IMG/VR virus record: IMGVR_UViG_3300028048_003121
DNA length: 64,000 nt
Reading direction: 5' to 3' (one strand)
DNA from: an uncultured virus (IMG/VR IMGVR_UViG_3300028048_003121)
Lineage: Duplodnaviria; Heunggongvirae; Uroviricota; Caudoviricetes
Every line of letters starts with the position of its first letter. Position 1 is the first letter of the stretch. The notes under the pieces were generated by a model. It did not search any database. It saw nothing but the letters and a program-made list of their open reading frames with translations, and was not told where the DNA came from. A program made the position numbers and the translations under genes. Positions 6,553 through 50,678 of the stretch are shown in pieces.

Positions 6553-6636
6553 GGGCCGGCTGTACGGCCTTAACGTGAGGGCATTGCCCACTCACGAATC
6601 AAGCGTTCATTAACATCGAGGCAAGCTTGATACAGC
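6553..6636 (+). ncRNA. Guide scaffold A (tracr-like RNA fused to a repeat 3' fragment)
   Basis: GGCC-GGCTGTAC-GGCC hairpin; CGTGAG...CTCACG hairpin; anti-repeat ATCAAGCGTTCATT; ends in AAGCTTGATACAGC. Homologous to three other loci in the window. Confidence 0.8.
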
Positions 6637-6830
6637 CGTCCATCATGTCTGAATAGACAGACAACGGGTGTTAGACACCCGAAAATGAAAGCTTGATACA
6701 GCTCAACCGCATGGATGCCGCCATCCTGAACAGGTGTTAGACACCCGAAAATGAAAGCTTGATACAGCTAAAGATGAGGTCTTTGGCACGATATATGGGT
6801 GTTAGACATCCGAAAATGAAAAAAACAGTG
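6623..6830 (+). CRISPR. Mini CRISPR array A: repeat GGTGTTAGACACCCGAAAATGAAAGCTTGATACAGC, 3 spacers
   Basis: Partial repeat 6623-6636; full identical 36-nt repeats 6667-6702 and 6733-6768; degenerate repeat from 6798. Spacers 6637-6666 (30 nt), 6703-6732 (30 nt), 6769-6797 (29 nt). Confidence 0.92.
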
Positions 6831-6921
6831 AAGCGTCGCGGCTCACTAAAATATATAAAGAATAATAATACCATTCTGGTCTACGAGAATCCGCGACATC
6901 TCGCCCAGGGTGGTATTTTAA

Positions 6922-12535: not shown

Positions 12536-12952
12536 TTACATACGGCGGTCATGACCCCAGATAATGCCTCTTCCTCCGTCGGGAAGCTCAATGACATAGG
12601 GGTCACGGACACCTATAATGTCAGTACCGATATGTCGGGGAGAGTCATCATCCGATGACGAACCGCCACCGGAAGACAGCTTGGCAGTAGTGGCATCCAG
12701 ACCAAAGAAACGGGGTAGAGCCGTACTCGCCGTGACAAGGAAGACACACGAGAAAGCAAGACGCATCACCTTCATGCGAACCTCCGGCTCGCCGTCCATC
12801 ATGTCTGAATAGACAGACAACGCGCCGACAATACAGATGACGGCTGCTATCGCATAGCAGACGGCACGGACATAGAAAAGGTAGCTGGCGACGCCTGTAG
12901 CGGCGAGGCCCAGCGGATCAGCGGTTAAAATCAAGTGTGTCATAAGCATCAA
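12536..12952 (-). CDS. DUF4134/TraE-like pilin paralogue (target of spacer A1)
   Basis: CYAIAAVICIVGALSVY...FL..ALPRFFG aligns with the TraE at 25892-26305. Confidence 0.75.
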   Translation of the reverse strand: MMLMTHLILTADPLGLAATGVASYLFYVRAVCYAIAAVICIVGALSVYSDMMDGEPEVRMKVMRLAFSCVFLVTASTALPRFFGLDATTAKLSSGGGSSSDDDSPRHIGTDIIGVRDPYVIELPDGGRGIIWGHDRRM

Positions 12953-31549: not shown

Positions 31550-31633
31550 GGGGCAGCTGTTTGCCCTTAACATGAGGGATAAATCCACTCATGAATCATG
31601 CGGTCATTCTCATAATGATAAGCTGAATATAGC
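31550..31633 (+). ncRNA. Guide scaffold C (tracr-like RNA fused to a repeat fragment)
   Basis: GGGCA-GCTGT-TTGCCC; CATGAG...CTCATG; ends AAGCTGAATATAGC. Confidence 0.8.
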
Positions 31634-31750
31634 ATTAGACGCTCCAGCCTTGTACTCCTTGAAGGTGTTAGACACCTGGGAATGAAAGCTGAATACAGCT
31701 TGGGTGATAAATCGTAACTATAGTTTCCTGGTGTTAGACACCTCTAATAA
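31620..31750 (+). CRISPR. Mini CRISPR array C: repeat GGTGTTAGACACCTGGGAATGAAAGCTGAATACAGC, 2 spacers
   Basis: Partial repeat ending 31633; spacer 31634-31663; full repeat 31664-31699; spacer 31700-31729; truncated repeat from 31730. Repeat is closely related to array A. Confidence 0.85.
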
Positions 31751-31773
31751 AACAAGGTAAGATGACTCCTACC

Positions 31774-33305: not shown

Positions 33306-33319
33306 ATAACCGGTGCTTC

Positions 33320-34075: not shown

Positions 34076-34093
34076 AGTCTATAAAATTTGATG

Positions 34094-35101: not shown

Positions 35102-35119
35102 AGCCGTAGCAATTAAATT

Positions 35120-35689: not shown

Positions 35690-35701
35690 ATTTTCACGCT
35701 T

Positions 35702-36409: not shown

Positions 36410-36415
36410 AATAAG

Positions 36416-38617
36416 TTATGCTATTTGTTGTAATCTCTGTTTCAGATAGGTTTGCCGCTCGACGAATAAACGACGGTTCTTGACATAGAGGTTGGTGACG
36501 GCAGCATAAATAGCCTGACGATCACCAATAAGAATGCAACGCTCCTTGGCACGGGTGATGGCCGTGTAGATTAGGTTGCGCTGAAGCATTATATAGGCAG
36601 AATTGAGGATGGGAATAATGACCGTGTTATACTCGGAACCCTGCGATTTATGAATGGTGGTGGCATAAGCCAAGTCCAACTCATCCAAATCGTTTTCCTC
36701 GTATCTGACATCAGAGACATGGTCAGGGAAACTGACAATCATATATCCCATATCCTCATTCACAAACAGAATAGTACCTATATCACCATTGAAAACACCC
36801 TTATCATAGTTGTTCTTCATTTGCATGACGCTATCACCAACACGGAAGAAAGTACTGCTATACTGTAAGGCTTCGCCCTTGGGGTTCAGACGCTCCTGCA
36901 ACATCTTGTTCAATACATAACAAGCCGTAGTTCCACGGGAACGCTGAGGACAGAGAACCTGGACATCCTTGGGCTTAATATGATAAGCCATTGGAAGGCG
37001 CTCGGCAACTAACGTCAAAATCTCTTCGGCAACCTGCTGCTCGTCGGTGTTGGAAATAAAGAAAAAATCCTTGCTACCTTTATTTGATAAGTCCGGCATC
37101 CTGCCATACTTGATAGCCTGAGCCGCATAGGGAATACGGCTGGAAGCCTGCTGGCGGAAGATTTTTTCAAGACGAACAACAGGAATGACATGACTGTCGA
37201 TAAGGTCTTTCAGAACGTTACCGGCTCCGACACTCGGAAGCTGGTCAACATCACCGACGAGAATCAGACGCTTATAGGGAGACATGGCCTTCAAGAGACT
37301 CTGGAAGAGAAGAATGTCAACCATGGAGAACTCATCAACAACAACAACATCCTCAGACAGATGGTTGTCCTCGTTATACTTAAAACCATTGACTTCCCAG
37401 CTGAAGCACAAAAGACGATGAATGGTGGAAGCATCATAGCCTGTACTCTCCTTGGCACGCTTGGCAGCGCGACCGGTAGGAGCACACACGGCAATGCTGT
37501 AGTTTTTCAATCTAAGGGCACAAAGGATTCCTTTGAGAACGGTGGTCTTTCCAGTACCAGGACCACCGGTGAGAATCATCACCGAGTGCTGAAGGGACTG
37601 GTGAATAGCCTGCTGCTGGACAGGATCAAACGTCATACCTTCCATAGACTGGATATGACGGATAGCATGGTTGGCAAGGATTTTATCTTCATCAGAAGAG
37701 AAATCCCTAAAATAGGACTGAGCTGACAACATAGAAAGAAGCCGATTGGCACAATAGTACTCGGCATTGTAATACTCAGAAAGGTAAACCTTGCCGATAT
37801 CATCCACAAGAGTACCGGCATTGATGTTAGAACGGACGGCATGCTCTATCAGGTTCTTATCTGCTTGAAGAATTTCATGAGCTGAATCCAGGAGTTGCTC
37901 ATGCCTGATATAACAGTCGCCTTGTTTTATCAACTGGGACATCACGAAAATAACGCCATAATGAAGACGGCGAGGATCATCATCCTTATAACCCATCTCC
38001 TTAGCAATCTTGTCGGCAATAATAAAACTGATACCGTCAATCTTCTCGATGAGACAGTAAGGATTTTCGCGGACAGCCTGAACGGCAGTACCACCGAAAA
38101 CCTTGATGATTTTCTTAACATAGGCAAGGCTGATACCATAACTGGCAAGAAAAACCATCACATCACGCTCCAGACTCTGCTGCTTGATGAAAGAAGAAGC
38201 ACGGTAAGCTCTCTCCTTACCAAGACGGGGAATTTCAATAAGTTTTTCAGGGAAATTCTCGATGATATTAAAGGTCTGGTCACCGAAGGCTTCCACGATA
38301 GAATGGGCAAACTTCTTACCAATGCCTTTGATCTTGCCACTGGCAAGGTACTTCTCTATACCTGTCAGAGACTCCGGACGAACCTCCATCCAGGAGATTG
38401 CTTCAAACTGACGGCCATATTTCTCATGCTGCACCCAGTTTCCCTGAACTTCCAGAAGAATACCTTCGATGACATCAAAGGAATAGCCCGTCACTACAAC
38501 GTCTGCACCGCTATCTTCAATAGTAGCGGCAAAGACACTGTAGTTATCCTTGCGCTCGTAAAAAATTTTGTTCTTTACGACGCAACGAAGACGGGTATAT
38601 TTTACTTCATCGTTCAT
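36416..38617 (-). CDS. recD2: RecD2-like ATP-dependent helicase
   Basis: HEKYGRQF; LTGGPGTGKTT; VVDEFSM; GDVDQLPSVGAG; YATTIHKSQGSE; YTAITRAK. Confidence 0.93.
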   Translation of the reverse strand: MNDEVKYTRLRCVVKNKIFYERKDNYSVFAATIEDSGADVVVTGYSFDVIEGILLEVQGNWVQHEKYGRQFEAISWMEVRPESLTGIEKYLASGKIKGIGKKFAHSIVEAFGDQTFNIIENFPEKLIEIPRLGKERAYRASSFIKQQSLERDVMVFLASYGISLAYVKKIIKVFGGTAVQAVRENPYCLIEKIDGISFIIADKIAKEMGYKDDDPRRLHYGVIFVMSQLIKQGDCYIRHEQLLDSAHEILQADKNLIEHAVRSNINAGTLVDDIGKVYLSEYYNAEYYCANRLLSMLSAQSYFRDFSSDEDKILANHAIRHIQSMEGMTFDPVQQQAIHQSLQHSVMILTGGPGTGKTTVLKGILCALRLKNYSIAVCAPTGRAAKRAKESTGYDASTIHRLLCFSWEVNGFKYNEDNHLSEDVVVVDEFSMVDILLFQSLLKAMSPYKRLILVGDVDQLPSVGAGNVLKDLIDSHVIPVVRLEKIFRQQASSRIPYAAQAIKYGRMPDLSNKGSKDFFFISNTDEQQVAEEILTLVAERLPMAYHIKPKDVQVLCPQRSRGTTACYVLNKMLQERLNPKGEALQYSSTFFRVGDSVMQMKNNYDKGVFNGDIGTILFVNEDMGYMIVSFPDHVSDVRYEENDLDELDLAYATTIHKSQGSEYNTVIIPILNSAYIMLQRNLIYTAITRAKERCILIGDRQAIYAAVTNLYVKNRRLFVERQTYLKQRLQQIA

Positions 38618-39084
38618 AACTGTTCTTTTTCGGACTTTGCAGTATTTAAGATGGAAACCGGCTCGGCAGGCTTTAAGGAATCCTTATAAGCCTTTAGCTT
38701 CTTACAGCTGGAACCGATACATCTGGAACAAGCCAGCAAGCTTTTAGCATGATTATACCGCCAACAACGGTCAAAGCTCTTCGACATCTTACAGACTACG
38801 GAAGAGGTGTCTGCAGGGAAGAAAGTGACTATCATAGCCATAGGCTCATCATCCCAACAATGGTTGCGAAGATAATGGGGAAGATTGCTGTTATTGATTG
38901 GGAGAATAAAAGCACAGTCAGGAACATCCCAAGCATCATACAACTCATGGGTGTCCTCATTCTCTATCTTAACACGATGGGGAGTGTCCACAGACAGACA
39001 AGCCATGATATAATGGTTTCCATCGGGCAGGGATACAAGCCACAGGGAAATCTTATCTTCGTTAAACATCAAATCCATAGTCAA
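38614..39084 (-). CDS. Hypothetical protein
   Basis: 156-aa ORF. Confidence 0.6.
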   Translation of the reverse strand: MTMDLMFNEDKISLWLVSLPDGNHYIMACLSVDTPHRVKIENEDTHELYDAWDVPDCAFILPINNSNLPHYLRNHCWDDEPMAMIVTFFPADTSSVVCKMSKSFDRCWRYNHAKSLLACSRCIGSSCKKLKAYKDSLKPAEPVSILNTAKSEKEQL

Positions 39085-39101
39085 AAGGGTTAAATTAAAC
39101 G

Positions 39102-40118
39102 TTACTTATCGTTATTCTTATGCTTGGAGAGGAAATCTTCTGGGAAGCATCCATAACGCTTACGGAAAGCGTCGCGGAGGAGGACAAGCCCACTCTTATC
39201 GAGCTTGTAGGTATTGTCAATGACGGCACGGGCAGAGGAAATGGCTATTTTCTCCTCGTTAGCCGTCAACAGGGTCTTCTTGGAATTTTCCGACTGAAGT
39301 AGCTCAGCAGGAGAAAGAACTTTCCTTAGACGATACTGGATGGTAATGTCAGGGAAATATTTCTTGAAGACCAGGAAATAAGGATTGCTGTAAATTCCTT
39401 CCAGCAGGTCATACTGGTCTTTGGTTACAGAGAGCAAGATACACTTGTCGGCAAAATAGATCTTTTCGATGTAGATATCATCCAAGACCTTCTTGTCAAC
39501 CTCTACAATATGCTCCTTGAACTCGTTCGAGAACTCGTACCACTTGCGATAGACATCCTGACGGAAGTCATCCTCTTCCTTCTTCCTGGCTTCGTACTCC
39601 TCATTGAGGTATTCCTGCCGCTTCTGCTCACACTCAATAGCGAAATCCTTCAAGGCACAGGTGATAACCATCGGGTCAACCTTGCCGTAGAACTTACCAA
39701 AGTGTCCGCACTTAAAACGGTAGAAAAAGAGCTGCATGACGGAATACTTCATTTCCTTGTATTCCTGGGCTATCAGAGTGGCCAGCTTCTTAGTCTGGTC
39801 ATCATTCATGTTCTTACTGCCAGTGAAGGTGTTCAAGTTGGCAATAGCAGGTACAAGCCAGGAGGAAGCTGCCCCGGAACCATAAGCCTTATCAAGCAAT
39901 GCAAGGGTAGAGTAATCATTCATAATACTACCTCGCTCGTCAGCGGCACAGTCTACCTGAGTATCAGGATTTATAGCTATAGCAAAATCCTCAAACGACG
40001 GGTAGTTTTCTCTTAGGAGCTGCACCTTCAGCTCGTAGCTCTTGCATAATCCTTGCTGCTCCTGCATAGATGTCTTCGCTTGAGCGATAGCCGTTGTTAT
40101 TGTCTGTTCCATGTTCAT
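39102..40118 (-). CDS. Replication-associated protein following the initiator (DUF6633-like)
   Basis: LFFYRFKCGHFGKFYGKVDPMVI motif; follows DUF4373 gene. Confidence 0.6.
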   Translation of the reverse strand: MNMEQTITTAIAQAKTSMQEQQGLCKSYELKVQLLRENYPSFEDFAIAINPDTQVDCAADERGSIMNDYSTLALLDKAYGSGAASSWLVPAIANLNTFTGSKNMNDDQTKKLATLIAQEYKEMKYSVMQLFFYRFKCGHFGKFYGKVDPMVITCALKDFAIECEQKRQEYLNEEYEARKKEEDDFRQDVYRKWYEFSNEFKEHIVEVDKKVLDDIYIEKIYFADKCILLSVTKDQYDLLEGIYSNPYFLVFKKYFPDITIQYRLRKVLSPAELLQSENSKKTLLTANEEKIAISSARAVIDNTYKLDKSGLVLLRDAFRKRYGCFPEDFLSKHKNNDK

Positions 40119-40959
40119 GCTGTTGTTTGTTAAACTTATCTTCCTGGATAATCATCCAACTCACGAAATGATGCTTAGCATCTCCAAGGTTCTGGTGCAG
40201 CTTGCCGGAGGCCTTGACTTCCTGACTCCAGCGGTCAAGATAGTCATCAAGCATCTGAACGTTGACGTTCAAAAACTTGAACCGCATGAAAATCTGCTCC
40301 TTCCAGATAGGACTCTGACGAAGCTCTGCAACCTCAGCATCCACACCATCACACACCACCGTGTCATCACACTCCACCAACGCAAGCTCACCTTCGCGTG
40401 CGCGGATATCCGCACTCGAAGAGTGCTTTACTTTACTTTCCTTTACTTTACTTTGTGTACTTATTCCGGAGTTTATCGGAGTTTCTTCCGTATTATCATC
40501 AGTTATTTCGGAAATAACTTGGTTTTTTTCGGGAATAATCTCACTTTCTTCGGAAATAACTGATATTTCCTTATCATCGAGCATCCTGTAAGGCAGATAG
40601 GCTGGAAGACGACGCTTGGCGACGGCACAGAAGTCGAAGAAACGTTTCTGAATACCACGGGATGTTAGGACGTTATTCTGCTCGTAGAGTGCCTTATCGA
40701 ACAATCCTATATTAAAGCAATAATCTATAACCTCCTGCACGTAAACTTCCTCTAAATGCGCTATTTCAGAGACGGTAAAGGGGATATCCTCATCCCAAAG
40801 CAGATAGTAGCCGGAGGCATAAATCTGACAAAGGAGAATGTGATAGACAGATACAGCCTGGACACCCTTATAGCGTATCAGCTTACGGATCTTGATATCT
40901 TGGTAGAAATTCACATCAATGGTGAAATATTCCATACCTTGCTTCTTTGGACGGGACAT
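39991..40959 (-). CDS. DUF4373 (Lin1244-like) replication initiator
   Basis: MSRPKKQGMEYF..D..FYQDIKIRKL; VLTSRGIQKRF; internal 21-bp repeats. Confidence 0.8.
   Translation of the reverse strand: MSRPKKQGMEYFTIDVNFYQDIKIRKLIRYKGVQAVSVYHILLCQIYASGYYLLWDEDIPFTVSEIAHLEEVYVQEVIDYCFNIGLFDKALYEQNNVLTSRGIQKRFFDFCAVAKRRLPAYLPYRMLDDKEISVISEESEIIPEKNQVISEITDDNTEETPINSGISTQSKVKESKVKHSSSADIRAREGELALVECDDTVVCDGVDAEVAELRQSPIWKEQIFMRFKFLNVNVQMLDDYLDRWSQEVKASGKLHQNLGDAKHHFVSWMIIQEDKFNKQQHEHGTDNNNGYRSSEDIYAGAARIMQELRAEGAAPKRKLPVV
40506..40570. repeat. 21-bp-period iteron-like repeats, set 1
   Basis: TTTCGGAAATAAC / TTTCGGGAATAAT / CTTCGGAAATAAC at 21-nt spacing. Confidence 0.7.
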
Positions 40960-40965
40960 AATACA

Positions 40966-41442
40966 CTATATTTGAGGGTTTTTACCGGAATAATTCTTAT
41001 CGACGGGAGTTTTTTCGGAAATAACTTGGGTTATTTCGGGAATAACTACAGTTTCTTCCGAATAAACAAGTCTTAACTGAGTATTAACGAAGAAATAAGG
41101 CAGGTCAGAGCCTATATTCTTCTCATCTCCGAGGATATTCCCTGCAGGAATAGCCAGCACATGACGGTCGGCATACTTAGCCTGGTCCAGAAAACCGTTC
41201 TTGACCATACGATGCACGACCATATCTACAAGACGCTCTGAAACGTTGTTACGTCCAGCGACCTTATCCCTGAACTCCTTGCAATAAGGAGTCTCAAAAC
41301 CAGTCTCAGTAGTCTCGATCAGAATGTCGAGAACCAACTTAGACCCCTTGAAGCCAAACTCTTTCTCGATGGCTCTCACAAACGGATGTTTGAAAAAACC
41401 CCTGGAAAGGTGGATTGCTTCGGCTGTTAAAGATTCAATCAT
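40966..41442 (-). CDS. Degenerate DUF4373-like paralogue
   Basis: FFKHPFVRAIEKEFGFKG; GFLDQAKY..HVL; same internal repeats as the neighbour. Confidence 0.6.
   Translation of the reverse strand: MIESLTAEAIHLSRGFFKHPFVRAIEKEFGFKGSKLVLDILIETTETGFETPYCKEFRDKVAGRNNVSERLVDMVVHRMVKNGFLDQAKYADRHVLAIPAGNILGDEKNIGSDLPYFFVNTQLRLVYSEETVVIPEITQVISEKTPVDKNYSGKNPQI
41013..41067. repeat. 21-bp-period iteron-like repeats, set 2
   Basis: TTTCGGAAATAAC / TTTCGGGAATAAC / CTTCCGAATAAAC at 21-nt spacing. Confidence 0.7.
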
Positions 41443-41472
41443 AATAATATATTTATAAGTTAATAACTCGGC

Positions 41473-41700
41473 TTACGCCAGATCAAGACCATCCAGGAGT
41501 ACCTTCATGGCTAACTCCTGAGCAGAAATAACACTGACACCGGCCCTACGCTGGTTCTCGAACTCCTCAGAAGCTTTCTCGGCACGCTCGTTAATAAACT
41601 GCTGGTCAAACAGCTTCTCGTTACGCTGCTGGCGTAAAACTCCCCTCAGATAGCTGCTGTAGTAGTTGGGAGTGTTCTGTTGAAATTCTTGCTTATCCAT
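41473..41700 (-). CDS. DUF1896-like protein
   Basis: YY..YL...FINERAEKASEEFE..RRAG....AQELAMKVLLDGL. Confidence 0.7.
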   Translation of the reverse strand: MDKQEFQQNTPNYYSSYLRGVLRQQRNEKLFDQQFINERAEKASEEFENQRRAGVSVISAQELAMKVLLDGLDLA

Positions 41701-41739
41701 AGCTGTATTTCATTAAATAAATATTTAAGTATTTTCGTG

Positions 41740-42099
41740 TTACTTTTTATATTGATATTCATATATATAAATATGACCATTTGAGCCAACCTCGTAAACC
41801 CAGTCACAGACGGGTGAAGGAAGCTCAGTAGAGGTTTTTTCCTGGTCTTGCATAACTTCATTATAGCGCGACTCAAAAAAACTGAAAAGAACGAATAACA
41901 AGATGACGGCAATGACACCTAATATGGATTTCAGATTTCTATGCTCAATCTTACGATATTCAATACAGAGCGTTATAAGCACCGTCCATAACAACACAGT
42001 AACTAAAACGGCGCCACTGAAAGCCATACCCAGGATCCACCACCTTGCAGGATGGTCAAGGATGCCGGAACCTAATATAAAAATCAAAAAGTTCATCAT
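41740..42099 (-). CDS. Membrane protein
   Basis: 2-3 TM segments; AT-rich. Confidence 0.55.
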   Translation of the reverse strand: MMNFLIFILGSGILDHPARWWILGMAFSGAVLVTVLLWTVLITLCIEYRKIEHRNLKSILGVIAVILLFVLFSFFESRYNEVMQDQEKTSTELPSPVCDWVYEVGSNGHIYIYEYQYKK

Positions 42100-42126
42100 A
42101 TCGTATATTCTTTATCGGTGATTCAT

Positions 42127-42612
42127 TCAATAACGTAGATCCGTGAAATGGAGAATGACTCCATTCATAACTTTTTTCTTCCTGGTCTTCATAAACCAGT
42201 CAACAAAATCATCTGCAGAAAGACCGTCATTCTGGGCGACATCAAGAAAAGTGGGATAATGGAAATCACCACTGGCCTGACGAACACCGATAAACTTGTC
42301 CCAAGGAGCACGGAAATCCAAGGTGACACGCTGGGTACCTAATTTGGTGTGACGGGCAATCTCTATCTGATGACTGCCTGGCTCGTAGGGCTTACCGCTC
42401 CACTGCCTGACAGAGAGAACAGCCCTGCCAGCGTTAATCTCTTCCGCTCTGTGTTCCCACAACTCTGCATTTCCACGGATGGTGTGTTTCTTGACACCTT
42501 CCTCTTTCTTGGTCTTGAAACCGGTAGGCTCACCGGCTCTGGGGTGAGTCTTTGGGAACTCACGCGAGAGCATCAGAACGTATGTCTTCATCTTCTTTGC
42601 CATCTTCATCAC
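42127..42612 (-). CDS. ASCH/PUA-like phage protein
   Basis: KKHTIR; LSVRQWSGKPY; AQNDGLS..DF.DWF. Confidence 0.65.
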   Translation of the reverse strand: MMKMAKKMKTYVLMLSREFPKTHPRAGEPTGFKTKKEEGVKKHTIRGNAELWEHRAEEINAGRAVLSVRQWSGKPYEPGSHQIEIARHTKLGTQRVTLDFRAPWDKFIGVRQASGDFHYPTFLDVAQNDGLSADDFVDWFMKTRKKKVMNGVILHFTDLRY

Positions 42613-43343
42613 TATTTAAGTTGACCGGCAGCTCTACCAGAGGTGTTGAGCTGCTTACTAAGATTAACATTTCTTCCATCGTCAAAGCCAGCATTAAAGC
42701 CGTCAGGACGTACCTTGGTAGCAGAACTACGACGAGCCTTACCGATGGACTTAGAAGCCAGATAGTCTTTGATAAGTTCCTTATGGCAGACCATCAGACC
42801 CGTTTCCTGAGAGGTGGGCTGCTGGGCCTCGTAGTTTTCCTGCAGACCTCGGCTGACACCCTCCAGGTAGGAACGGAGGAAGTCTTTCTTCTTTGGCTCA
42901 GTCATAAAACGACCTGTGCCAAGATACTCGTTCTGGGCCTCGTTCAAACGCTCCATGGAGAGGCGACGGAAAACCTGTAAAAGGTATTCGTAGAACTCTT
43001 TTACGATGATGACATTGGCATCTAAGCCGACAATGTTCATCTGCTTGGTACGAGGACATACAATCACAGAACAGAGATTGTAACGGCAGATAATCATCAA
43101 CAGGTTCTGCTTCCAGCTGACACCGTACTGGTCGGCATAACTCAACGGATCTGACTCGACAATACGTGACTGCTCCTGCTGGTCGACAGCATGGATATCA
43201 CTCATGGAGAGATTATACTCCAGCAAAAGCTTACGAACCATCTTAGCAGCCTGAAAAGCCTCGCCGCTATTACCAATCTTCTCAGCACCATACTGGAGCT
43301 TCAGAAGCTTGCGAATTTTCTGAATGACAGTCTCTTTCTCCAT
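42612..43343 (-). CDS. DUF2786 domain protein
   Basis: IQKIRKLLKL...GEAFQAAKMVRKLLLEYNL; SYLEG; GFNAGFDDG. Confidence 0.8.
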   Translation of the reverse strand: MEKETVIQKIRKLLKLQYGAEKIGNSGEAFQAAKMVRKLLLEYNLSMSDIHAVDQQEQSRIVESDPLSYADQYGVSWKQNLLMIICRYNLCSVIVCPRTKQMNIVGLDANVIIVKEFYEYLLQVFRRLSMERLNEAQNEYLGTGRFMTEPKKKDFLRSYLEGVSRGLQENYEAQQPTSQETGLMVCHKELIKDYLASKSIGKARRSSATKVRPDGFNAGFDDGRNVNLSKQLNTSGRAAGQLK

Positions 43344-43351
43344 AGCAGAAC

Positions 43352-44017
43352 TTATTTAAAGGCCTTGGAATGGTCATTGATACAATGCTCTGTCTCAGGA
43401 TCATCCTTGATGGAAGGAAATACCTTTTTGCCATCAACCAGAGTCTCAGCACAATGGCTGCAAATAGTGTGGCTGCTGTCATCCCACCAACAGTTACCAT
43501 GATCGGGATGATAGCAGGGATTCTCCATGGTGCAGCCGCAGACGCGGCAAACACCCGGAATGGGCTTGTCAACAGCCTTATACAGCTCCTCAAAATCTGA
43601 GAAATAGTCATCCAGGGCAAGATACATCAGCTCAGGAGTAACCTCCTTGCTGGTGTCCATCACGAAGACACGCTTACCCATGCCGTTCATGTGACCGGCC
43701 TCGATATGCGAGGAACGTCCTGCAGGAAGCAACAAGATACAAGTATCTGCATCCTGCATGGCAGAGAAATGTTCATTGAAACGCTCAACGCTCAGACGAT
43801 CCAACAGCATACGCTTAAAATCCTTGCCATTCAGACATTTCTCCTTATAAGCACTACGTAGGTTCTGTGTGATAGAGACAGACTCCCAGACGGGAGCATC
43901 GTTACGTCCGTAGGGGTGTCTGAAGTCATAGACCTTATGACCCCGCTTGCGTAACTCCTGGACTAACTGCTGCTGGAAACCGTTTCTCCAGCTGCTGGCG
44001 ATATAGATTCTTGACAT
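43352..44017 (-). CDS. Nucleoside 2-deoxyribosyltransferase-like protein with C-terminal Zn finger
   Basis: RIYIASSWRN; LLLPAGRSSHIEAG; CRVCGCT..NPC...ICSHC. Confidence 0.7.
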   Translation of the reverse strand: MSRIYIASSWRNGFQQQLVQELRKRGHKVYDFRHPYGRNDAPVWESVSITQNLRSAYKEKCLNGKDFKRMLLDRLSVERFNEHFSAMQDADTCILLLPAGRSSHIEAGHMNGMGKRVFVMDTSKEVTPELMYLALDDYFSDFEELYKAVDKPIPGVCRVCGCTMENPCYHPDHGNCWWDDSSHTICSHCAETLVDGKKVFPSIKDDPETEHCINDHSKAFK

Positions 44018-44023
44018 AATCAG

Positions 44024-44728
44024 TTATTTAGATGGTGAATATTCCTTGTTCAGATAGGCACAGATTTCAAGAACCTGCTCAACTTTATCCAAATCAAACC
44101 AGTCCTCAGTACGGACACGGGTTTCCATATCAATCCAGAACTTATCATCAGTGGGATGCTCCAACAAGGTACGGAGCTTTCCTTCTACATTATCCGGGCC
44201 GATGCCACCGGCATAGCCGATATGAACGCCTGGAGAGGTGACAATCTCAATAGGGGTGTCGATACCGGCACCACAAGAGGCATCTAACAAGTAAGATGCA
44301 AAACGGGGACGCTGACCAGCCAAGAACTGCTTGCACAACTCAGGGGTGTGCATCTGGATAATCACCTCATCGATGAAGGGAATGGGTGCCAGACGGCGCA
44401 GCTCTGAGAAAAGACCGGCTGCTTTAAGGTTTAACTGACAACGCTTGAAGATTCTCGCATTGTTACCCAGCAACTTCTCTATCTTGAACTTCTTACCGGC
44501 GGCGACATCCAAAGCTGCCTGACCGCAGAAATGGGCAGAAAGACTCAGCTCCCTGTCTCTCAGAACAGAGATAATTAACGGATCCACAAATCTGTTACCG
44601 TTAAACTGCCAGTCATAAGACAACAGCACACCGAACTCCACAAAGGGAAATCTCTTCTGGAGCTGCACCAGACGCTTCACGTCTGTACGCTCATCAACAC
44701 CTGTAAATGTTACTTTCGTTAATTTCAT
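44024..44728 (-). CDS. PRAI-like TIM-barrel protein of phage type
   Basis: VTFTGVDE; LLDASCGAGI; GYAGGIGPDNV; WIDMET.VR. Confidence 0.7.
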   Translation of the reverse strand: MKLTKVTFTGVDERTDVKRLVQLQKRFPFVEFGVLLSYDWQFNGNRFVDPLIISVLRDRELSLSAHFCGQAALDVAAGKKFKIEKLLGNNARIFKRCQLNLKAAGLFSELRRLAPIPFIDEVIIQMHTPELCKQFLAGQRPRFASYLLDASCGAGIDTPIEIVTSPGVHIGYAGGIGPDNVEGKLRTLLEHPTDDKFWIDMETRVRTEDWFDLDKVEQVLEICAYLNKEYSPSK

Positions 44729-44850
44729 ATCTTCTTATCTTATAAATTTTGATAAACTCGACACAAAGCGCGTGATGCGCAGTACTCTTCGCAGAACCCT
44801 CAGAAGGTTCATGAAGCGCGAATGACGGTTATTGACTGGGTTACGCTTGC

Positions 44851-45036
44851 TCATGACTTAGTGACTTGGGCAACTGGAATGTATGCTTCGCGAGACTCGT
44901 CATGACAACATGGAATCCATGAGTAACCCTCAGCATGGCGATCCACATTTTCGCCATAGACGAAACGGGAACAACGGCAACGGAGCACGCAGCCCACGCC
45001 TTCACACAATAAATAGGGACTGTCTGGCATAATCAT
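44851..45036 (-). CDS. Small Cys-rich protein
   Basis: CEGVGCVLRCRCSRF. Confidence 0.5.
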   Translation of the reverse strand: MIMPDSPYLLCEGVGCVLRCRCSRFVYGENVDRHAEGYSWIPCCHDESREAYIPVAQVTKS

Positions 45037-45449
45037 TCTGATTTAATGTTCTTGTTGGAAGATGCGCTCTGAGGAACGCAGAACTTGTGCTCGGCATGAA
45101 GGCGCTTGCGGAACTTGAAAATGCTACGCTTGCGCTTCTGCTGCTCAGGGGTCAGATAATGACGAGGGGACTTGTCACGACGATAGGTACACTTCTGCTC
45201 GATGGTATTGTTCACCTTCTCGATAACGAACTGAGCGGTATCAAGATCACGGATGATGACAGGGTGGACAAACCGACGAAGCTTGTGATACCAGATGTCA
45301 TCGTCGCCAATACGGACGGCAATACGCTGCTTAGGGAGAAACAGCGGAATGACAACGCCGCTGTCACCTACGGTGACATTCTCCCAATACTCAGTATTGG
45401 TCTGCTTCAGGACGGCCTTCAAGGCCTCTAATTTCTCTTGGTTAGTCAT
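45033..45449 (-). CDS. Hypothetical protein
   Basis: 138-aa ORF. Confidence 0.65.
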   Translation of the reverse strand: MTNQEKLEALKAVLKQTNTEYWENVTVGDSGVVIPLFLPKQRIAVRIGDDDIWYHKLRRFVHPVIIRDLDTAQFVIEKVNNTIEQKCTYRRDKSPRHYLTPEQQKRKRSIFKFRKRLHAEHKFCVPQSASSNKNIKSE

Positions 45450-45460
45450 AGCGGATAATA

Positions 45461-46588
45461 TTAAATTCTAAACTCTTCATACTTGATGACACGAACTGGC
45501 TTCTGGAGCTTCCAGCCCAGCTTGGTCAAGGTTGTTGCCATGACCTTTTCTCCATTGGTCATATCGCCAGTAGAATGGTCATAGTTTTCAATGAGATAAT
45601 CACACAAAAGGGACATCATATCAAACTTACCCTCTGGTATGATGTTATTAGGATCACTTATACATGAATTAAGATAGTCAATTTTCTCGTTAGAGGTCAT
45701 GTCGTTCCATTTCTTCCCTGGGTCATCAACAACATGGGTAGCATCAACAGGGGCTTCTTCCTTTTTCTGAACCATCGGATGCTCTTCCTTACGGATGAAA
45801 CGGATGCTCTTATAATCTTCTGGAGAATATACCTTCAACACCTCGATGGTGATGACATAATCTTTCTTTGAGGTATTCTTGGAGAGGTGCAGATAGAAAG
45901 CATCCTCAACAGTCTTCCTGAAGAAACGGGTCAGAGACTTTGAAATCTCTATATCCGAGACGGAATAGGCATCAGCATATTTGTAGTATTTGAGGTTCTT
46001 GGACTTTCCGGACTTCGAGAAAACCAGGAAGATGTGACCTTTACGTGACATGACCTTGCAGGACTTCAAATCCTTATCCTTGATAAGGGTGGAGAGATCC
46101 TTGCTCAGAAAAACCCTGTTCTGACTATAGACTCCTTCATGAAGGGTCAAGACCTTGACAGGCGCATGATTGTCAGTAGAACTGTTACAATCCTTGCAGT
46201 AAGGGCTATAACCGTCAATACGAGACTTCTCATTATTGAACTGATGAAGTGGCTTTAGCTGATAGCAGCGCGTACAGAACTTGTAACCGCTGAGCGTGGA
46301 GGTGTAAGCAAGCTGCTTATCGTCCATCTCTTCAGCAGGAACATTATCATTCTTACCCTTGGCAAACTCAATGTTCCAAAGCTCCTTGACAGTCTGCCAT
46401 TCCTCATTGTTGACATAAGGACTGGCATCAAAGATGGCAGAAGGTTCCACTGTGGCCAGGAAATCGTCAATGGTAAGAACCTCACCATTATAGGCCCCTT
46501 GACAATTCTGGTGGTCGCTCATAAACTGCTCCCACATGCCAAGGTCTGTCATAAATTCTTTGAATTTTGATATGTGATTAGTAGTCAT
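45461..46588 (-). CDS. Hypothetical protein with Zn-finger
   Basis: KFCTRCYQLKPLHQF...YCKDC. Confidence 0.75.
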   Translation of the reverse strand: MTTNHISKFKEFMTDLGMWEQFMSDHQNCQGAYNGEVLTIDDFLATVEPSAIFDASPYVNNEEWQTVKELWNIEFAKGKNDNVPAEEMDDKQLAYTSTLSGYKFCTRCYQLKPLHQFNNEKSRIDGYSPYCKDCNSSTDNHAPVKVLTLHEGVYSQNRVFLSKDLSTLIKDKDLKSCKVMSRKGHIFLVFSKSGKSKNLKYYKYADAYSVSDIEISKSLTRFFRKTVEDAFYLHLSKNTSKKDYVITIEVLKVYSPEDYKSIRFIRKEEHPMVQKKEEAPVDATHVVDDPGKKWNDMTSNEKIDYLNSCISDPNNIIPEGKFDMMSLLCDYLIENYDHSTGDMTNGEKVMATTLTKLGWKLQKPVRVIKYEEFRI

Positions 46589-46795
46589 AACTGATAATAA
46601 TATAAGTTATTTTCTGACATATAGTAATTATTTGTTATCTGTACCTGGCAGAAAGTCGGGCTTGAAAGAGAAGCAATGGAGTGTGCCGCCTGCCTTACGC
46701 CAAGCAAAACCACCATCCCAAAGATGAACGACTTCTGCATCGTCTGGAATCCGGTTAACAAACTCCTTGAACTTCTTACCATCCATAAAACTTAC

Positions 46796-47188
46796 TTATT
46801 CGGCTTCGCTAACTGTCATAAAATTCTGAGAGGCACGGAGAATGGCTAATACCTGTTTGTCCTGCTTGGGGAACAAACCTACCATGGTCTTACCAATCAC
46901 ACGCTGGATCTTGTTAGCCTTACGGGAGAGCTGGTCGGCAATACTGAACTTGGTATTCATCTCGTCAAGATAGAGGCGACGCTCCTCCATCATAAGGCGA
47001 TGTTCCTCAATCTGGAGTTTCTTAAAATCCAGTTTGCAACGCTCCAAATTGACAATAGCATTGATCTGCTTGACTTGAAGCTCACCACGACGGATGTCTA
47101 TGTCCGTCTCAGCCTTCTCGTTCATTCGCTGACTGAACTCTTCTTCAAGAGCGCAGAGGTCGAAAATTTTTTCTTGACTGTCCTTCAT
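46796..47188 (-). CDS. Coiled-coil hypothetical protein
   Basis: 130-aa ORF. Confidence 0.6.
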   Translation of the reverse strand: MKDSQEKIFDLCALEEEFSQRMNEKAETDIDIRRGELQVKQINAIVNLERCKLDFKKLQIEEHRLMMEERRLYLDEMNTKFSIADQLSRKANKIQRVIGKTMVGLFPKQDKQVLAILRASQNFMTVSEAE

Positions 47189-47220
47189 AACTTTATAATT
47201 TATTTATTACTAAAATTTCC

Positions 47221-47327
47221 TTTTATACCCAGATTGGCGCTATCAATAGGGATTTCCCGTTGTATGTAGCTATATGAGCACTTCATGAGTGAATAAATTC
47301 CTCACGATAGGGGTGTACAACCGCCCC
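47221..47327 (-). ncRNA. Guide locus D: minimal scaffold plus 29-nt spacer immediately downstream of dCas12f
   Basis: Minus strand: GGGG-CGGTTGTACA-CCCC; CGTGAG...CTCATG; ...CATACAAC; spacer GGGAAATCCCTATTGATAGCGCCAATCTG (47258-47230); degenerate repeat start GGTATAAAA. Confidence 0.75.
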
Positions 47328-47337
47328 GAAAATATAG

Positions 47338-48624
47338 TTATTTTGTTTTATCTTTTATTTCTGACTCTTTAAGTTCCTTAACCTCAATACCCACAGCATC
47401 AGCCTTATACTTGATTTTCGTCTTTAAGCCGAAATAACTCCAGTTTCTCAGAACCAGACCATCACCCTTCTCATGGTCTTCCTTGGCCTGGTCTTCACGC
47501 TCTTTCTGGTTTACCAGAACAATCTTTCCACACTTGTGTTTGATAGCTAAGTTGATAAGCTCACGGGAATAGGTGTGAAGCTTGGTGTCAACATAGTTAT
47601 TTTCCTTATCATGCCAACGCTCAATTGCCTGACACTTGCGCTTACGTCCATGACCGCCCTTGGCATATTTATTATTAGCCTGACAACGTTGTACCGCAGC
47701 CTGGATCTGAGTACGGCGATAAAGAAACTCTTCCTTCGTACCTATATGGAAGAATTTAACACCGCTGTCATAAACATTCTTGGCTACGACATTCACACAA
47801 AAAACAATCGGGTGGTTGATACCCAGATAAGCGTAAAGCACCTTATTAGAATTAAGAGCCACTTTCTGGACGGGAATATCTACACAGAGGAATAGAAAAA
47901 GCTTCTGCTTCTTTTTTTCAGACTTTTTATCAAATTTCTTCTCAAAGGCAATAGATGAAGAACATACCTTTAATTCACCATCGATACAACGCTGAAGAAT
48001 AGACTCATTATTAGATCTGTCCTGCCCCAGATGACAGCAGAAAGGAATACCGAAAAGATTGAAATAATAACGGTTCACCTTCTTTACCTCGCCAGTATTG
48101 GTGTCGGTATATTCTTCCTCGGCCTTATGAAGATTTGACAAGGCACGAGCAGAGAACGGAATGGGAATATTGTTTTTATAACTCCGTAATGAACTCTCAC
48201 CAACAGCAATATTGCCGGCAGTTTCCTTGTAGGAACTGGCAACAAGCTGATTAAGACAAGTATATATGTCTGAATTAACTTTATTCTTTAAAAAAGAAGA
48301 AATCAGACGATAAGTGACATTCTGTTCACTCAGTCCTTTTTCGTCTTTAAGGATGTCTTTAGAGTCCTTGTAAGCAAGCTTGAAACCATCAGTCTTCTTG
48401 TCCTTATAGACAAAAGGCTTATTATTAATATCAAGACGCTCCAAGACATCATCCTGCAAATACATAAACTCACGGACGTTCTGTTGAACAAAACGGTGAG
48501 ATACAATCAGATTTGCAGCTCTACGAACAGCATCACGCCAGTCATATAATGTCTGCATGTACTGTTTCTTCTGTTCGGTGTCCTGTTCGTGAACACGGAT
48601 TTCTATTTTACGAGTTATAATCAT
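47338..48624 (-). CDS. Cas12f/TnpB-family RNA-guided protein with inactivated RuvC (dCas12f-like)
   Basis: ITRKIEI N-terminus; GGHGRKRK; LHTYSRELINLA; LRNWSYFGLKTKIKYKA..GIEV. RuvC-I reads YAYLGI instead of xDLGI; RuvC-II reads IVLVNQ instead of IxxEDL; no Zn finger or RuvC-III. Flanked by guide loci. Confidence 0.85.
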   Translation of the reverse strand: MIITRKIEIRVHEQDTEQKKQYMQTLYDWRDAVRRAANLIVSHRFVQQNVREFMYLQDDVLERLDINNKPFVYKDKKTDGFKLAYKDSKDILKDEKGLSEQNVTYRLISSFLKNKVNSDIYTCLNQLVASSYKETAGNIAVGESSLRSYKNNIPIPFSARALSNLHKAEEEYTDTNTGEVKKVNRYYFNLFGIPFCCHLGQDRSNNESILQRCIDGELKVCSSSIAFEKKFDKKSEKKKQKLFLFLCVDIPVQKVALNSNKVLYAYLGINHPIVFCVNVVAKNVYDSGVKFFHIGTKEEFLYRRTQIQAAVQRCQANNKYAKGGHGRKRKCQAIERWHDKENNYVDTKLHTYSRELINLAIKHKCGKIVLVNQKEREDQAKEDHEKGDGLVLRNWSYFGLKTKIKYKADAVGIEVKELKESEIKDKTK

Positions 48625-48640
48625 AATACTAAAATTTTTA

Positions 48641-48792
48641 ATTCATTCGGTGTGTTACACCACCTTGTTCAAGTTATGTCAAGTATCATTCGCTGTGTGT
48701 CACCTCATTTCTTCGGTGTTTTACACCGGGTCGATAGTGTCCACGAAAATCTTTATGCTGTGTATCACCTCATTTCTTCGGTGTTTTACACC
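48641..48792 (-). CRISPR. Mini CRISPR array B: repeat GGTGTAAAACACCGAAGAAATGAGGTGAYACACAGC, 2 spacers
   Basis: Full repeats 48757-48792 and 48692-48727 (1 mismatch); truncated repeat 48641-48661; spacers 48728-48756 (29 nt) and 48662-48691 (30 nt). Confidence 0.9.
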
Positions 48793-48814
48793 TGACTTCA
48801 CGAAAGTCCTTGAC

Positions 48815-48880
48815 TTTTAAAAATTGAGAGCGACTTCGTGAGTGGAAATTCCCTCACGTTAAGGGCATCACAGCTGCCCC
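48815..48880 (-). ncRNA. Scaffold B (tracr-like, not fused to a repeat)
   Basis: GGGCA-GCTGTGA-TGCCC; CGTGAG...CTCACG; anti-repeat GTCGCTCTCAATTT is imperfectly complementary to AAATGAGGTGAC of repeat B. Confidence 0.78.
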
Positions 48881-48940
48881 ATTTGATATAATTATTCTAT
48901 CATATTCATAATCATATTATTTAATTGATACATGTATTTA

Positions 48941-49510
48941 TTATCGTGCTGATGTCTCACAGACATCCTCGACGTATTCAGTCATCTGACGCAGGAGCCG
49001 GAAGGTCTTCTTTGTTAGCTTCTTATGCTTTAACTCTTCCAGAAGCTCCTGGTAGATGCTGTTATTCTCCTTATATTCTCGCGTGAGGAAATAACGCAGC
49101 CATTTGGAGTTGAGCTTCTGAGGAAACGGCAAACGGAGCTTACGGACTATCATGGCACTCATAGCCATTTGGTAGGACTCGTACAAGTAGAAACACTGCT
49201 TGGCCTTATAGTCGTACCAGTCGAAGAGCATGTGGGCAACATTCTTTTGGCGGTTGATGCTGATCTGAAAGCACTCAATCACACACTCTTCCTTGATGCT
49301 ACGTGCAAGACTCTTCAGCTCGTCTAAAGTCGTAGACTTCTTGATCTCGAAGATAACCTCACGGATAAACTTCATGTTGGCATGCGGAACTGAACCATTG
49401 GCAGCAATGATCTTTTCCTGCCTGACATCATAGGTGTCACTGACCCAAAACTCCTTGGTAGGGTGGAGGTCACGCTGACGGGGCTTTATTTCAAATACTT
49501 GCTGGATCAT
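48941..49510 (-). CDS. Degenerate Mob_Pre/MobV-like protein
   Basis: IREVIFEIKKSTTLDELKSL...QISINR...AHMLFDW resembles the Mob_Pre core but lacks an intact His motif. Confidence 0.45.
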   Translation of the reverse strand: MIQQVFEIKPRQRDLHPTKEFWVSDTYDVRQEKIIAANGSVPHANMKFIREVIFEIKKSTTLDELKSLARSIKEECVIECFQISINRQKNVAHMLFDWYDYKAKQCFYLYESYQMAMSAMIVRKLRLPFPQKLNSKWLRYFLTREYKENNSIYQELLEELKHKKLTKKTFRLLRQMTEYVEDVCETSAR

Positions 49511-49892
49511 AACACTATTTCTTTTCTTTATTTGAAGAGCATACTATCCAAAAAGCGACGGCAATGAAAGCCCATACTATCAGGGCAAGGCCTGAAAGGA
49601 ACAGTGTAAGCATCACTTCCTGTAAGTATGATAAAATTTCCATGAAACTCATAATCTATCGGATGTCTGTAGGTGAATGAAAAATTTCGTAGAGTACAGC
49701 GGCCAGAAGGCCTAACAGTACAAAACAGATAGAGAAGATAACCCAGGAACTCATAGTCACTATGTTTGAGAATGATGATCCACACCCTCACAAGGTGGCT
49801 TGTCCTCATGACCATATAGAATCTCCATTTCGAGATAACCACAGTAGGTGCCAGTACGGGCGGCACAATGCTTGCATTTTTCGTTCATAATA

Positions 49893-50678
49893 TCATTGTT
49901 TTTGTTTTGTCATATACTCATGAAGATCAAGATAACCGCTATACACCTTGGAGGTGTCAGAACAGCGGCCTTTGTTACGGTCGCGGATCGTCAGGGTCAT
50001 CATCTTACCTACGTCGGTGGTAGGAAACAGACAATAGATGTGCTTGTAGTCCTCACAGTCCAAAAGGGCATTGGGAAAGTTGCTGACATTGTTCACGACA
50101 ATACAGTCACACATGGACGGCAAGTCTGTTTCGACATTCTCCTTTAAGAGGGTGAGGTAAGACATATAATCCAAGAAGCTGGAGAATACACAGCAGTTGG
50201 CTGACTTCTGGCCCTTACGGAAAGGATAGAAGGAAATGCCAGGTGACTTGAAGGTGATAGTCTGGGGAACAATAGCCTCAGTATCATCCGTAACGGTGTC
50301 CATCCCGGAAGAGCCTTTGCCTTCCTTCAAGGCTTGCTTGGCCAGCTTGCGCTTGGAGCGGCGCATCACCTTCAAAGAGCGGATAAACTCCTGTTGCTCC
50401 TTTAGGGCACTGTTAATACGATGGGAGTTATTCATATTGCACAGGTCGTTGATGAGCTGGCTGCAATAGAACTCCAGACCGCCATTCTGGTTCTGCAACC
50501 CGACACCGGTATAGACCTTGTTAAGGATTAGCAGCTGAATGGACTTGGTATCATGAGGTACGACGGCATAATTGATACCGATGTCGGCAAGCTGGTTCCT
50601 GCCTGCAGCATCAAGAGGCGAAATGCTCTTGATGTTCGTACCTTGATTGGAACAGGGGATAATCAATGAGGTTGTCAT
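49893..50678 (-). CDS. Primase C-terminal/Toprim-like protein (degenerate)
   Basis: VGLQNQNGGLE; CCVFSSFLDYMSY; YSGYLDLHEY. Confidence 0.6.
   Translation of the reverse strand: MTTSLIIPCSNQGTNIKSISPLDAAGRNQLADIGINYAVVPHDTKSIQLLILNKVYTGVGLQNQNGGLEFYCSQLINDLCNMNNSHRINSALKEQQEFIRSLKVMRRSKRKLAKQALKEGKGSSGMDTVTDDTEAIVPQTITFKSPGISFYPFRKGQKSANCCVFSSFLDYMSYLTLLKENVETDLPSMCDCIVVNNVSNFPNALLDCEDYKHIYCLFPTTDVGKMMTLTIRDRNKGRCSDTSKVYSGYLDLHEYMTKQKQ

Follow-up and report, generated by a model that had tools for sequence, protein, structure and literature searches.

A putative single-guide RNA gene of a nuclease-dead Cas12f on a conjugative element, with three guides matching DNA-transfer functions

The 64,000-nucleotide IMG/VR record IMGVR_UViG_3300028048_003121 (the window) contains at positions 47,221 to 47,327, just downstream of a gene for a Cas12f homolog, a short locus (locus D) that is very probably a guide RNA gene of that protein, a nuclease-dead Cas12f (dCas12f), and that is probably in use. 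The explanation we favor, at a probability of about 0.6, is a dCas12f guide system without a sigma-E partner that would control mobility genes without cutting DNA. Locus D would then be the gene-proximal single-guide RNA gene of a sigma-less Bacteroidales branch of dCas12f, and the protein would ride as part of a 2.1-kb cassette on a conjugative element of about 167 kb in Prevotellaceae-like bacteria of the cattle gut. The D RNA would comprise a 69-nt scaffold, made up of two conserved stems, the 5 bp that remain of the anti-repeat/repeat helix, and the handle AUACAAC, and then a guide; the spacer that codes for this guide is 29 nt long, and the mature RNA probably carries a trimmed version of it. 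Loci A, B and C elsewhere in the window would be sister guide modules with a longer third helix, each leading a short CRISPR array. The protein, presumably dimeric like its solved relatives, would bind these guide RNAs and be brought by them to matching double-stranded DNA, which it would not cut. The outcome would be RNA-guided repression or blocking of mobility genes, by which the carrier may police hitch-hiking or rival elements and tune its own transfer. Because the three guides fused to scaffolds match DNA-transfer functions, repression of mobility genes appears to be the likeliest outcome; that the net effect is repression of, or interference at, mobility loci we regard as an even call. 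The gene and the parts of locus D are as follows.

47338..48624, minus strand: dCas12f gene, 428 amino acids (P0001), assigned by homology to solved structures
47259..47327, minus strand: scaffold of locus D, 69 nt, with stem 1, stem 2, mini stem 3 and the handle ATACAAC, from sequence reading and covariance model R2
47230..47258, minus strand: guide of locus D (spacer D0), 29 nt, GGGAAATCCC...AATCTG, from sequence reading
47221..47229, minus strand: vestigial repeat start GGTATAAAA, 9 nt, with 8 of 9 bases identical to the start of the locus B repeat GGTGTAAAA

Read along the minus strand from 47327 to 47259, the scaffold begins 10 nt past the stop codon of the dCas12f open reading frame (ORF). 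It contains stem 1 as GGGGCGG..CACCCC, stem 2 as GTGAGGAAT..ATTCACTCAT, and a mini-stem, GTGCT/AGC(T)AC, which would be the fused remnant of anti-repeat and repeat, and then the handle ATACAAC. On the array side the repeat is truncated to the 9-nt remnant, and no terminator hairpin is seen downstream of the guide. An earlier sequence-only reading of this DNA had described the same anatomy, with a 69-nt scaffold, a 29-nt spacer and a repeat remnant just 3' of the gene, and had also described the scaffolds of loci A and C as fused to a ~14-nt repeat fragment and followed by residual arrays; our own reading of the sequence bears out both descriptions. Its proposal that D is a very compact natural single guide gains from the match to the covariance model described below, from the position downstream of the gene, and from a size near that of the solved F. 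taeanensis guide, which the text of bioRxiv 10.1101/2025.06.10.658880 describes as a P1-P4 core with a guide of 14 nt that begins near residue 76.

Relatives were taken from a scan of genome_contigs that gave 355, of which 79 loci were kept. Among the loci kept, a simple motif search finds the scaffold adjoining most dCas12f genes, in a layout of stem 1, stem 2, a third helix of highly variable length, the handle ATACAAC or ATGCAGC, and the guide. RNAalifold, run on 65 aligned core sequences, predicts 14 pairs, of which 9 stay paired despite changes on both sides. The covariance model R2, built from 60 scaffold cores from other genomes and from no window sequence, hits exactly four sites on the two strands of the 64 kb: locus A at 54.7 bits, C at 47.7, D at 44.2 and B at 42.1, with E-values from 5e-14 to 2e-10. 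The D core (47282-47327, E 5e-11) keeps all conserved positions and pairs of the family model save one stem-1 pair. When the model includes the window copies and is run with filters off, the fifth-best score is 10.5 bits. The four loci are members of one guide RNA family, beyond chance. The third helix of D is like that of marine Flavobacteriaceae guides, at 4-5 bp; across 23 compact guides (D and 22 other loci) mini stem 3 is 97.7% paired, with compensatory change at two of its four pairs. By its conserved scaffold, covarying stems, 3' guide and place beside the gene, D is, on its sequence, a member of the known class of dCas12f single-guide RNAs. No Rfam family reaches its gathering threshold within the window.

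The arrangement recurs with variation among the relatives. A scaffold lies directly 3' of the gene in L010, L013 and L009 as well, and L013 has a B-like locus and then a minimal one. The closest named relative, L010 (61% identity, a Prevotellaceae metagenome-assembled genome), has four scaffolds around its dCas12f gene (7340-7420, 5868, 7790, 8232). One of these precedes mini-repeats of 12 nt, GTGACATACAAC, whose spacers are about 21 nt long, and a tRNA-Arg gene lies at 8099-8171; as a possible processing aid beside guide loci, tRNA genes are found in L010 only, once, and not in the window. A second sigma-less subgroup, from Muribaculaceae and other Bacteroidales (L014, L030, L037, L045 and L061, at ~5830-5990), has the scaffold 5' of the gene, and the guide start GGTTAGTAATTA is identical in all five loci; the L014 copy adjoins SusC/SusD-like genes.

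Judged by its residues, the protein is a nuclease-dead Cas12f in which the catalytic positions have been replaced and the C-terminus shortened, rather than the TnpB/Cas12-like nuclease for which it had been taken. Its best solved relative is PDB 9n9c, "Nuclease-deactivated Cas12f" (E 1.4e-62, residues 4-415 against 9-362 of 365), with the active Cas12f structures 9nzo and 9nzr ranking below it (E 4.4e-45). In the alignment to active 9nzo, Y266 stands at the position of the RuvC-I Asp (DLGIN) and V371 at that of the RuvC-II Glu (QME). The protein ends 13 residues beyond the aligned core, whereas 9nzo runs on for about 90 residues, and the zinc ribbon and RuvC-III are therefore missing. Conservation of the substituted motifs, AYLG and LVNQ, extends to 31 relatives at 53-70% identity; the family as a whole numbers 930 proteins at E 0.001 or better.

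An RNA just after a gene, with the guide at its 3' end, is also what TnpB elements encode, and D could accordingly be read as an omega-RNA of the TnpB type, which would mark where an IS200/IS605-like transposon ends and guide its homing. The protein does match NCBIfam model NF040570 ("guided_TnpB"), weakly, at 53.6 bits against a cut-off of 100, and Pfam OrfB_IS605 at 18.9 against 30.5, both below threshold. TnpA was not found in the window, the catalytic residues are lost, the cassette extends some 430 nt past the guide, and the guide matches a foreign contig rather than the cassette flank. Membership in the TnpB or IS200-IS605 group was rejected on this basis, and a transposon-type omega-RNA has next to no chance of being correct.

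The sister loci comprise the following parts, the scaffolds having the R2 scores given above.

6553..6636, plus strand: locus A scaffold, 84 nt, fused to the final 14 nt of the repeat; fold z -3.52
6637..6666, plus strand: guide A0, 30 nt, a 30/30 match to window 12793-12822
6667..6834, plus strand: locus A array, with two full 36-nt repeats, spacers A1 and A2, and a degenerate third repeat
31550..31633, plus strand: locus C scaffold, 84 nt, fused to a repeat fragment (final 14 nt of the 36-nt repeat)
31634..31757, plus strand: remainder of locus C, with guide C0 (31634-31663), a full repeat, spacer C1 (31700-31729) and a partial repeat
48793..48880, minus strand: locus B scaffold with anti-repeat GTCGCTCTCAATTTTT and 26-nt linker, 88 nt together
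48626..48792, minus strand: locus B array, with a repeat, spacer B1 (48728-48756), a repeat, spacer B2 (48662-48691) and a degenerate repeat

Repeat counts are three for A, three for B and two for C, at a period of 65-66, as in the repeat-spacer arrays of type V-F. Locus B lies directly upstream of the dCas12f ORF; its array, two full 36-nt repeats and a degenerate one, ends 1 nt ahead of the ATG. The sequence-only reading had set B, as a dual-RNA locus with a separate scaffold, at the start of a series that ends in D. Folded as one RNA, however, B pairs its anti-repeat with the 3' half of the first full repeat (z -2.69), with two small hairpins between the paired arms and with handle and spacer free, and locus A folds like it with a shorter helix. 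Scaffold, linker and first repeat of B thus fold in cis, and a single adapter-bounded contig from an RNA library spans them, so B need not represent a dual-RNA stage. What stands of the series is that the extent of the remaining anti-repeat/repeat helix is the main difference among the loci; one element does not tell in which direction the series ran.

The fusion scenario is already in print (Altae-Tran 2023; Hoffmann 2026). In the text of Altae-Tran et al. (PNAS 2023, PMC10691335), the "Sigma-TnpB" account has a Cas12f lose its activity and RuvC-III while its array shrinks to a half repeat beside the trans-activating CRISPR RNA (tracrRNA); fusion of tracrRNA and half repeat then yields a new omega-like RNA in which the repeat's 3' end survives. 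The same text reports relaxase, MobC and integrase genes linked to the inactivated clade and names Prevotellaceae. The Discussion of Hoffmann et al. (Nature 2026, PMC13472631) repeats the idea of a fusion of half repeat and tracrRNA, and dCas12f guides are given in that text as 85-105 nt, encoded immediately downstream of dcas12f. The scenario of Altae-Tran et al., as set out in their text, is a reconstruction across genomes, whereas here the B, A/C and D forms occur in one element; the window adds to it three guides with identified protospacers.

The motif AATAAYTATAT is common to B (48881-48897) and D (47328-47344, minus strand), 5-6 nt 5' of the scaffold start; C has instead a standard Bacteroidota-type TAacTTTG box about 20 nt 5' of its scaffold. 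A sigma-70 promoter and terminator scan around the cassette returned shuffle-level results, from a scan model ill-suited to Bacteroidota. Directly 5' of scaffold A, window 6345-6550 contains a Bacteroidota-type TAccTTTG box, about 180 nt, and a hairpin with a T-run at 6508-6545; the stretch may be a separate small RNA or the leader of locus A.

Each of the guides fused to the scaffolds of A, C and D has a match over its full length. C0 is 30/30 identical to positions 2017-2046 of a 4,261-bp contig, C76, in the nearest genome (G001), inside a gene for a 753-residue MobV relaxase (NF041497, 1.6e-35); G001 is the only genome in which the C0 target was seen, and it lacks the effector gene. The A0 site lies in the window itself, in a gene of the transfer operon, and is identical on contig C5 of G001.

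12793..12822, plus strand: A0 protospacer, 30/30, inside the DUF4134 gene 12536-12949 (minus strand), codons ~43-52; Pfam DUF4134 2.6e-20

For D0, the sequence-only reading had found no convincing target in the window, and indeed no site there has three or fewer mismatches over the first 16 nt; the target emerged from other DNA. An exact scan of metagenome_contigs with the first 20 nt of D0 finds one contig, L086, on which the match extends to 29/29 (L086:1492-1520, minus strand) with flanks unrelated to the scaffold. The site falls within 706 bp of intergenic DNA that follows two ORFs, one for a Toprim/CHC2 primase and one unnamed, and a TAATTTTG box lies 47-75 bp downstream of it. Contigs L086 and L087 gave no scaffold match with R2, and the sites are therefore targets rather than guide loci. 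Across 401 genomes of the nearest family, 20 nt of D0 gave four matches at two or fewer mismatches, against five for a reversed control, which is chance level; exact scans of viral_contigs with D0 and six other spacers gave no match for any of them.

Beside the D0 protospacer lie three AAGCCTAAT stem-loops (L086 1300-1425). A 26-nt block containing one stem-loop and an 18-nt block of the same intergenic region recur collinearly on contig C5 of G001 at ~107176-107247; D0 itself was not found at that place (~107.2 kb). The blocks common to L086 and the conjugative element may represent a shared cis element such as a transfer origin.

The carrier is best described by its genes and by comparison with G001. 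The window encodes TraG, TraM, DUF4138 and two DUF4134 proteins (Pfam), and also DUF5045, a RecD2-like helicase, an integrase-like protein and a giant SNF2-type helicase. A phage origin, guessed from the long ORFs, was rejected because of the Pfam conjugation genes; the phage collection gave no DNA match and only distant TnpB matches by protein. G001 carries the same element on C5 (166,918 bp) at 91-97% identity. The window spans from C5:1 to C5:166918 unbroken, and because it aligns across both contig ends, C5 represents a 166,918-bp circle. Metagenome runs holding the stretch are labelled bovine gut, and 15 rows hold at least half of the sampled words. In PLSDB plasmids, a protein search returned only distant TnpB matches at 30% identity or less, and blastn with the arrays of A, B and C returned one chance-level match (E 0.1) and nothing else. 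The dCas12f gene and its flanking loci form a discrete insertion.

46798..48936, no strand assigned: cassette, 2,139 bp, comprising ORF 46796-47188, locus D, dCas12f and locus B; absent from G001:C5

The cassette is a clean indel: window segments 45802-46797 and 48937-49900 abut within 3 nt on C5. A second window piece absent from G001 is 6289-7819, which holds locus A, and no homologue of the dCas12f protein was found in G001. That genome keeps locus C, with the fused spacer C0 identical and the array spacer C1 replaced, which suggests that the array turns over while the fused guide is kept. The remaining cassette ORF (46796-47188, minus strand, 130 residues), directly 3' of D, looks coiled-coil-like by eye and belongs to no family; in a search for a conserved partner, no homologue of it was found in 90 loci.

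Spacer turnover between near-identical elements, real repeat-spacer arrays, and perfect protospacers in mobile-element genes are features of adaptive immunity in which the target would be destroyed, by the protein or by a recruited nuclease. Against this, the whole group has substitutions at the catalytic Asp and Glu and lacks RuvC-III and the zinc ribbon, and a 30/30 self-match stands in the element's own transfer gene alongside an intact effector gene. No Cas1, Cas2, Cas4 or other nuclease domain was found in the cassette or in the 72 window ORFs. An active type V-F CRISPR-Cas system was rejected for the loss of catalytic residues and for the count of zero Cas1, Cas2 and Cas4 families in those ORFs; immunity by destruction is very unlikely.

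The profile searches and tree appear to place the window dCas12f in a Bacteroidales branch that has no sigma-E partner. No sigma-70 or extracytoplasmic function (ECF) domain is found in the 72 window ORFs, and a custom profile built from 27 dCas12f-linked sigma-E proteins has no match among window ORFs of at least 90 residues even at E 10. The same profile matches 61 of 81 related loci and none of the ten closest (L001, L002, L007-L014). For nine sampled loci of the sigma clade, the ORF just 5' of the gene contains sigma-70 region 4 in eight, often twice; the corresponding ORFs of L010, L011, L012, L042 and L056 lack that region. A quick maximum-likelihood tree of 90 rows, its root set for drawing only and a careful search unfinished, has a branch with a Shimodaira-Hasegawa-like approximate likelihood ratio test (SH-aLRT) value of 100 that parts a 27-row group from a 63-row group. 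The former brings together the window, 16 sigma-less loci and a further 11 family members of unknown context; the latter contains all 60 sigma-linked rows. Proteins with HTH_17 and an RNA polymerase alpha C-terminal domain are encoded at L010:10635-11573 and L001:16-948, a few kb from sigma-less dCas12f genes.

These results bear directly on another way in which a dead Cas12f may act, namely RNA-guided transcription. With a sigma factor supplied from elsewhere on the element or by the host, transcripts would begin some 46 bp past the target and run antisense to the relaxase, DUF4134 and primase-side genes. In its favor, the best-matching solved structure is that of a dCas12f from a sigma-E system, the three guides share an antisense orientation that would yield antisense RNAs, which could also repress, and the C-terminal truncation is the one that is filled by an extra domain of sigma-E in the models described in the text of PMC10691335. 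The absence of sigma domains from the 72 ORFs, the empty profile search, its failure on all ten closest loci, and the branch separating the window group all speak against such a mechanism; moreover, published guides are fixed at 14-16 nt against conserved chromosomal sites, whereas here the spacers are 29-30 nt and match mobile-element DNA. We regard guided transcription as improbable.

RNA evidence came from four RNA libraries, available as assembled contigs over 30500-50400, which give neither strand, ends nor level; two of these, X2 and X16, are from one sample, the one that best holds the element. Depth is highly uneven. The locus C bin stands at 80.9 in X2 and 25 in X16, against 2.08 and 0.84 in the preceding bin, and the locus B bin at 14.5 and 26.2. 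An X16 contig starts at 31556, 6 nt within scaffold C. A further X16 insert, 48873-48742, is a discrete 132 nt running from 7 nt within scaffold B to 15 nt into spacer B1, and the loose ends at 48873 and 48742 we take to be sequencing-adapter sequence. An insert bounded in this way fits one RNA with a trimmed guide, and is a weak hint of that.

Locus D itself might alternatively be the unused leftover of a decaying array, with guides supplied only by A, B and C, or by none. Its truncated repeat and 9-nt remnant, the lack of a terminator hairpin, the lack of a clear RNA signal, and an unremarkable single-sequence fold would all fit decay. The D core, however, keeps the positions and pairs of its family save the one in stem 1 (44.2 bits), D0 is still identical at 29 of 29 positions to a natural sequence, L010, L013 and L009 likewise have a scaffold directly after the gene, and the minimal form with a third helix of 4-5 bp works as a guide in Flavobacteriaceae systems according to the text of PMC13472631. 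Decay of D is improbable; like a cutting system and a transposon-type omega-RNA, it has a lower likelihood than a protein that binds without cutting.

Several observations weigh against a non-cutting guide system that represses mobility genes. Locus D folded alone has a minimum-free-energy structure no better than shuffles (z -1.40), and it lacks the mini-stem. The GTGCT/AGCTAC stem to which the sequence-only reading had drawn attention is thus upheld by homology and by covariation in compact guides, and not by the fold of D; we accept it because it is homologous to the compact guides of other genomes. Over D there is only one X2 piece, 46605-47298 (depth 6), which covers the guide and about 40 nt of scaffold; the depth of the D bin is not above that of neighboring bins, and among the pieces listed none covers 47299-47366 and none lies over D in X16. 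Each of the three guides is complementary to the coding strand of the genes next to its target (the guide sense being that of the antisense strand), and for dCas12a, among effectors with a 5' motif, such an orientation is weaker at stopping RNA polymerase. The 5' flanks of the three protospacers, GGCTCGC, TTCTGTTG and ATATTGTA, show no common motif, and therefore no target-adjacent motif can be named; position -1 is C for A0, G for C0 and A for D0, so that the published single 5'-G occurs only at C0. A0 targets a gene of the element itself while the effector is present, which is in keeping with regulation and not with a simple barrier to rivals. For the array spacers A1, A2, B1, B2 and C1, no protospacers were found in the window, G001, viral_contigs or PLSDB. 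None of five guides from relatives (two from L010, two from L013, and the C1 variant of G001) has a second site in its own genome, and the mobility-gene pattern therefore comes from three guides of one element. Finally, that L086 is a mobile element is suggested by one primase ORF.

Plasmid-borne type IV systems offer a functional analogy to a mobile element that would restrain others by binding: they act against plasmids without cleavage, and their spacers match plasmid functions, although their lineage is unrelated. Cas12m, which is named in the text of PMC10691335, may serve as a second analogy, in function only, being non-cutting and plasmid-directed with an unrelated effector lineage. The window effector, by contrast with both, would be a dimeric miniature derivative of Cas12f that works with hard-wired single guides. 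With type V-F CRISPR-Cas12f the window system has in common its ancestry, a small protein, an anti-repeat/repeat helix by the guide, 36-nt repeats and spacers of about 30 nt; it differs in its inactive nuclease, in the lack of adaptation genes from the window, and in the covalent link between scaffold and first guide at every locus.

The nearest described relatives are the dCas12f systems of Hoffmann et al. As far as the text of that study and PDB 9n9c describe it, dCas12f-sigma-E belongs to the same family, with the same RuvC loss and C-terminal truncation, and its homologous single-guide scaffold, of similar size, lies right 3' of the gene with ATACAAC before the guide. Unlike it, the window has no rpoE in 64 kb, falls in a separate tree group, retains CRISPR arrays, and belongs to a conjugative carrier. 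The fixed 14-16-nt guides that the study reports are directed at susCD promoters; here the spacers are 29-30 nt and correspond to mobile-element DNA, with protospacers that share no 5'-G motif. The closer parallel in that text is a CRISPR-linked cluster of dCas12f without rpoE, in which dead Cas12f likewise lies near arrays, putative guides upstream of the arrays were found by covariation, and a repressor role was proposed. The example given for that cluster concerns the promoter of a resistance-nodulation-division (RND) efflux cassette in Chitinophagaceae; ours concerns relaxase, type IV secretion and primase-side targets on a conjugative carrier. A literature search found no paper on dCas12f guides against conjugative, relaxase, MobC or Prevotellaceae targets, with the supplements of PMC10691335 and the figures of both papers outside its scope, and the running text of PMC13472631 has zero occurrences of "conjugative" or "self-target".

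Other features of the element lie apart from the guide loci. A 107-nt repeat, 95% identical, occurs at 27719-27825 and 58464-58570, each copy non-coding and 5' of plus-strand genes, with more copies on G001:C5. A 71-nt repeat, 86% identical, occurs at 6186-6256 and 27265-27335 and contains the inverted repeat TCTTGATTT..AAATCAAGA; at least five further copies are found on G001:C5, and it may be a shared operator or promoter module. Among the element's own genes is one for a DNA polymerase III beta clamp, complete in its three domains (28115-29257, plus strand).

The guide class, the dead effector and the fusion of tracrRNA to repeat have been published, so that the first framing of this locus is mostly confirmation. 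What is new is a sigma-less dCas12f on a conjugative element, in a 2.1-kb cassette, with three fused guides that have exact DNA-transfer targets, together with an effector cassette that is a clean gain or loss between near-identical elements and several stages of guide reduction side by side. It is a concrete case that makes the role of sigma-less dCas12f testable by mobilization and reporter assays, and the 428-residue protein with its 69-nt scaffold is a candidate for a very small programmable DNA binder. A bolder proposal, which we offer tentatively and consider doubtful, is that the conjugative element wields its dead miniature Cas12f as an adaptive, non-destructive CRISPR interference weapon and as a governor of transfer: selected, hard-wired guides would silence the relaxase or origin-side region of hitch-hiking mobilizable elements, the element's own pilin-like gene would be throttled, and the short arrays would keep sampling new spacers. 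If true, the system would stand midway between CRISPR immunity and the fixed sigma-E regulators, and would show a dead Cas12 used in nature by one plasmid to control another.

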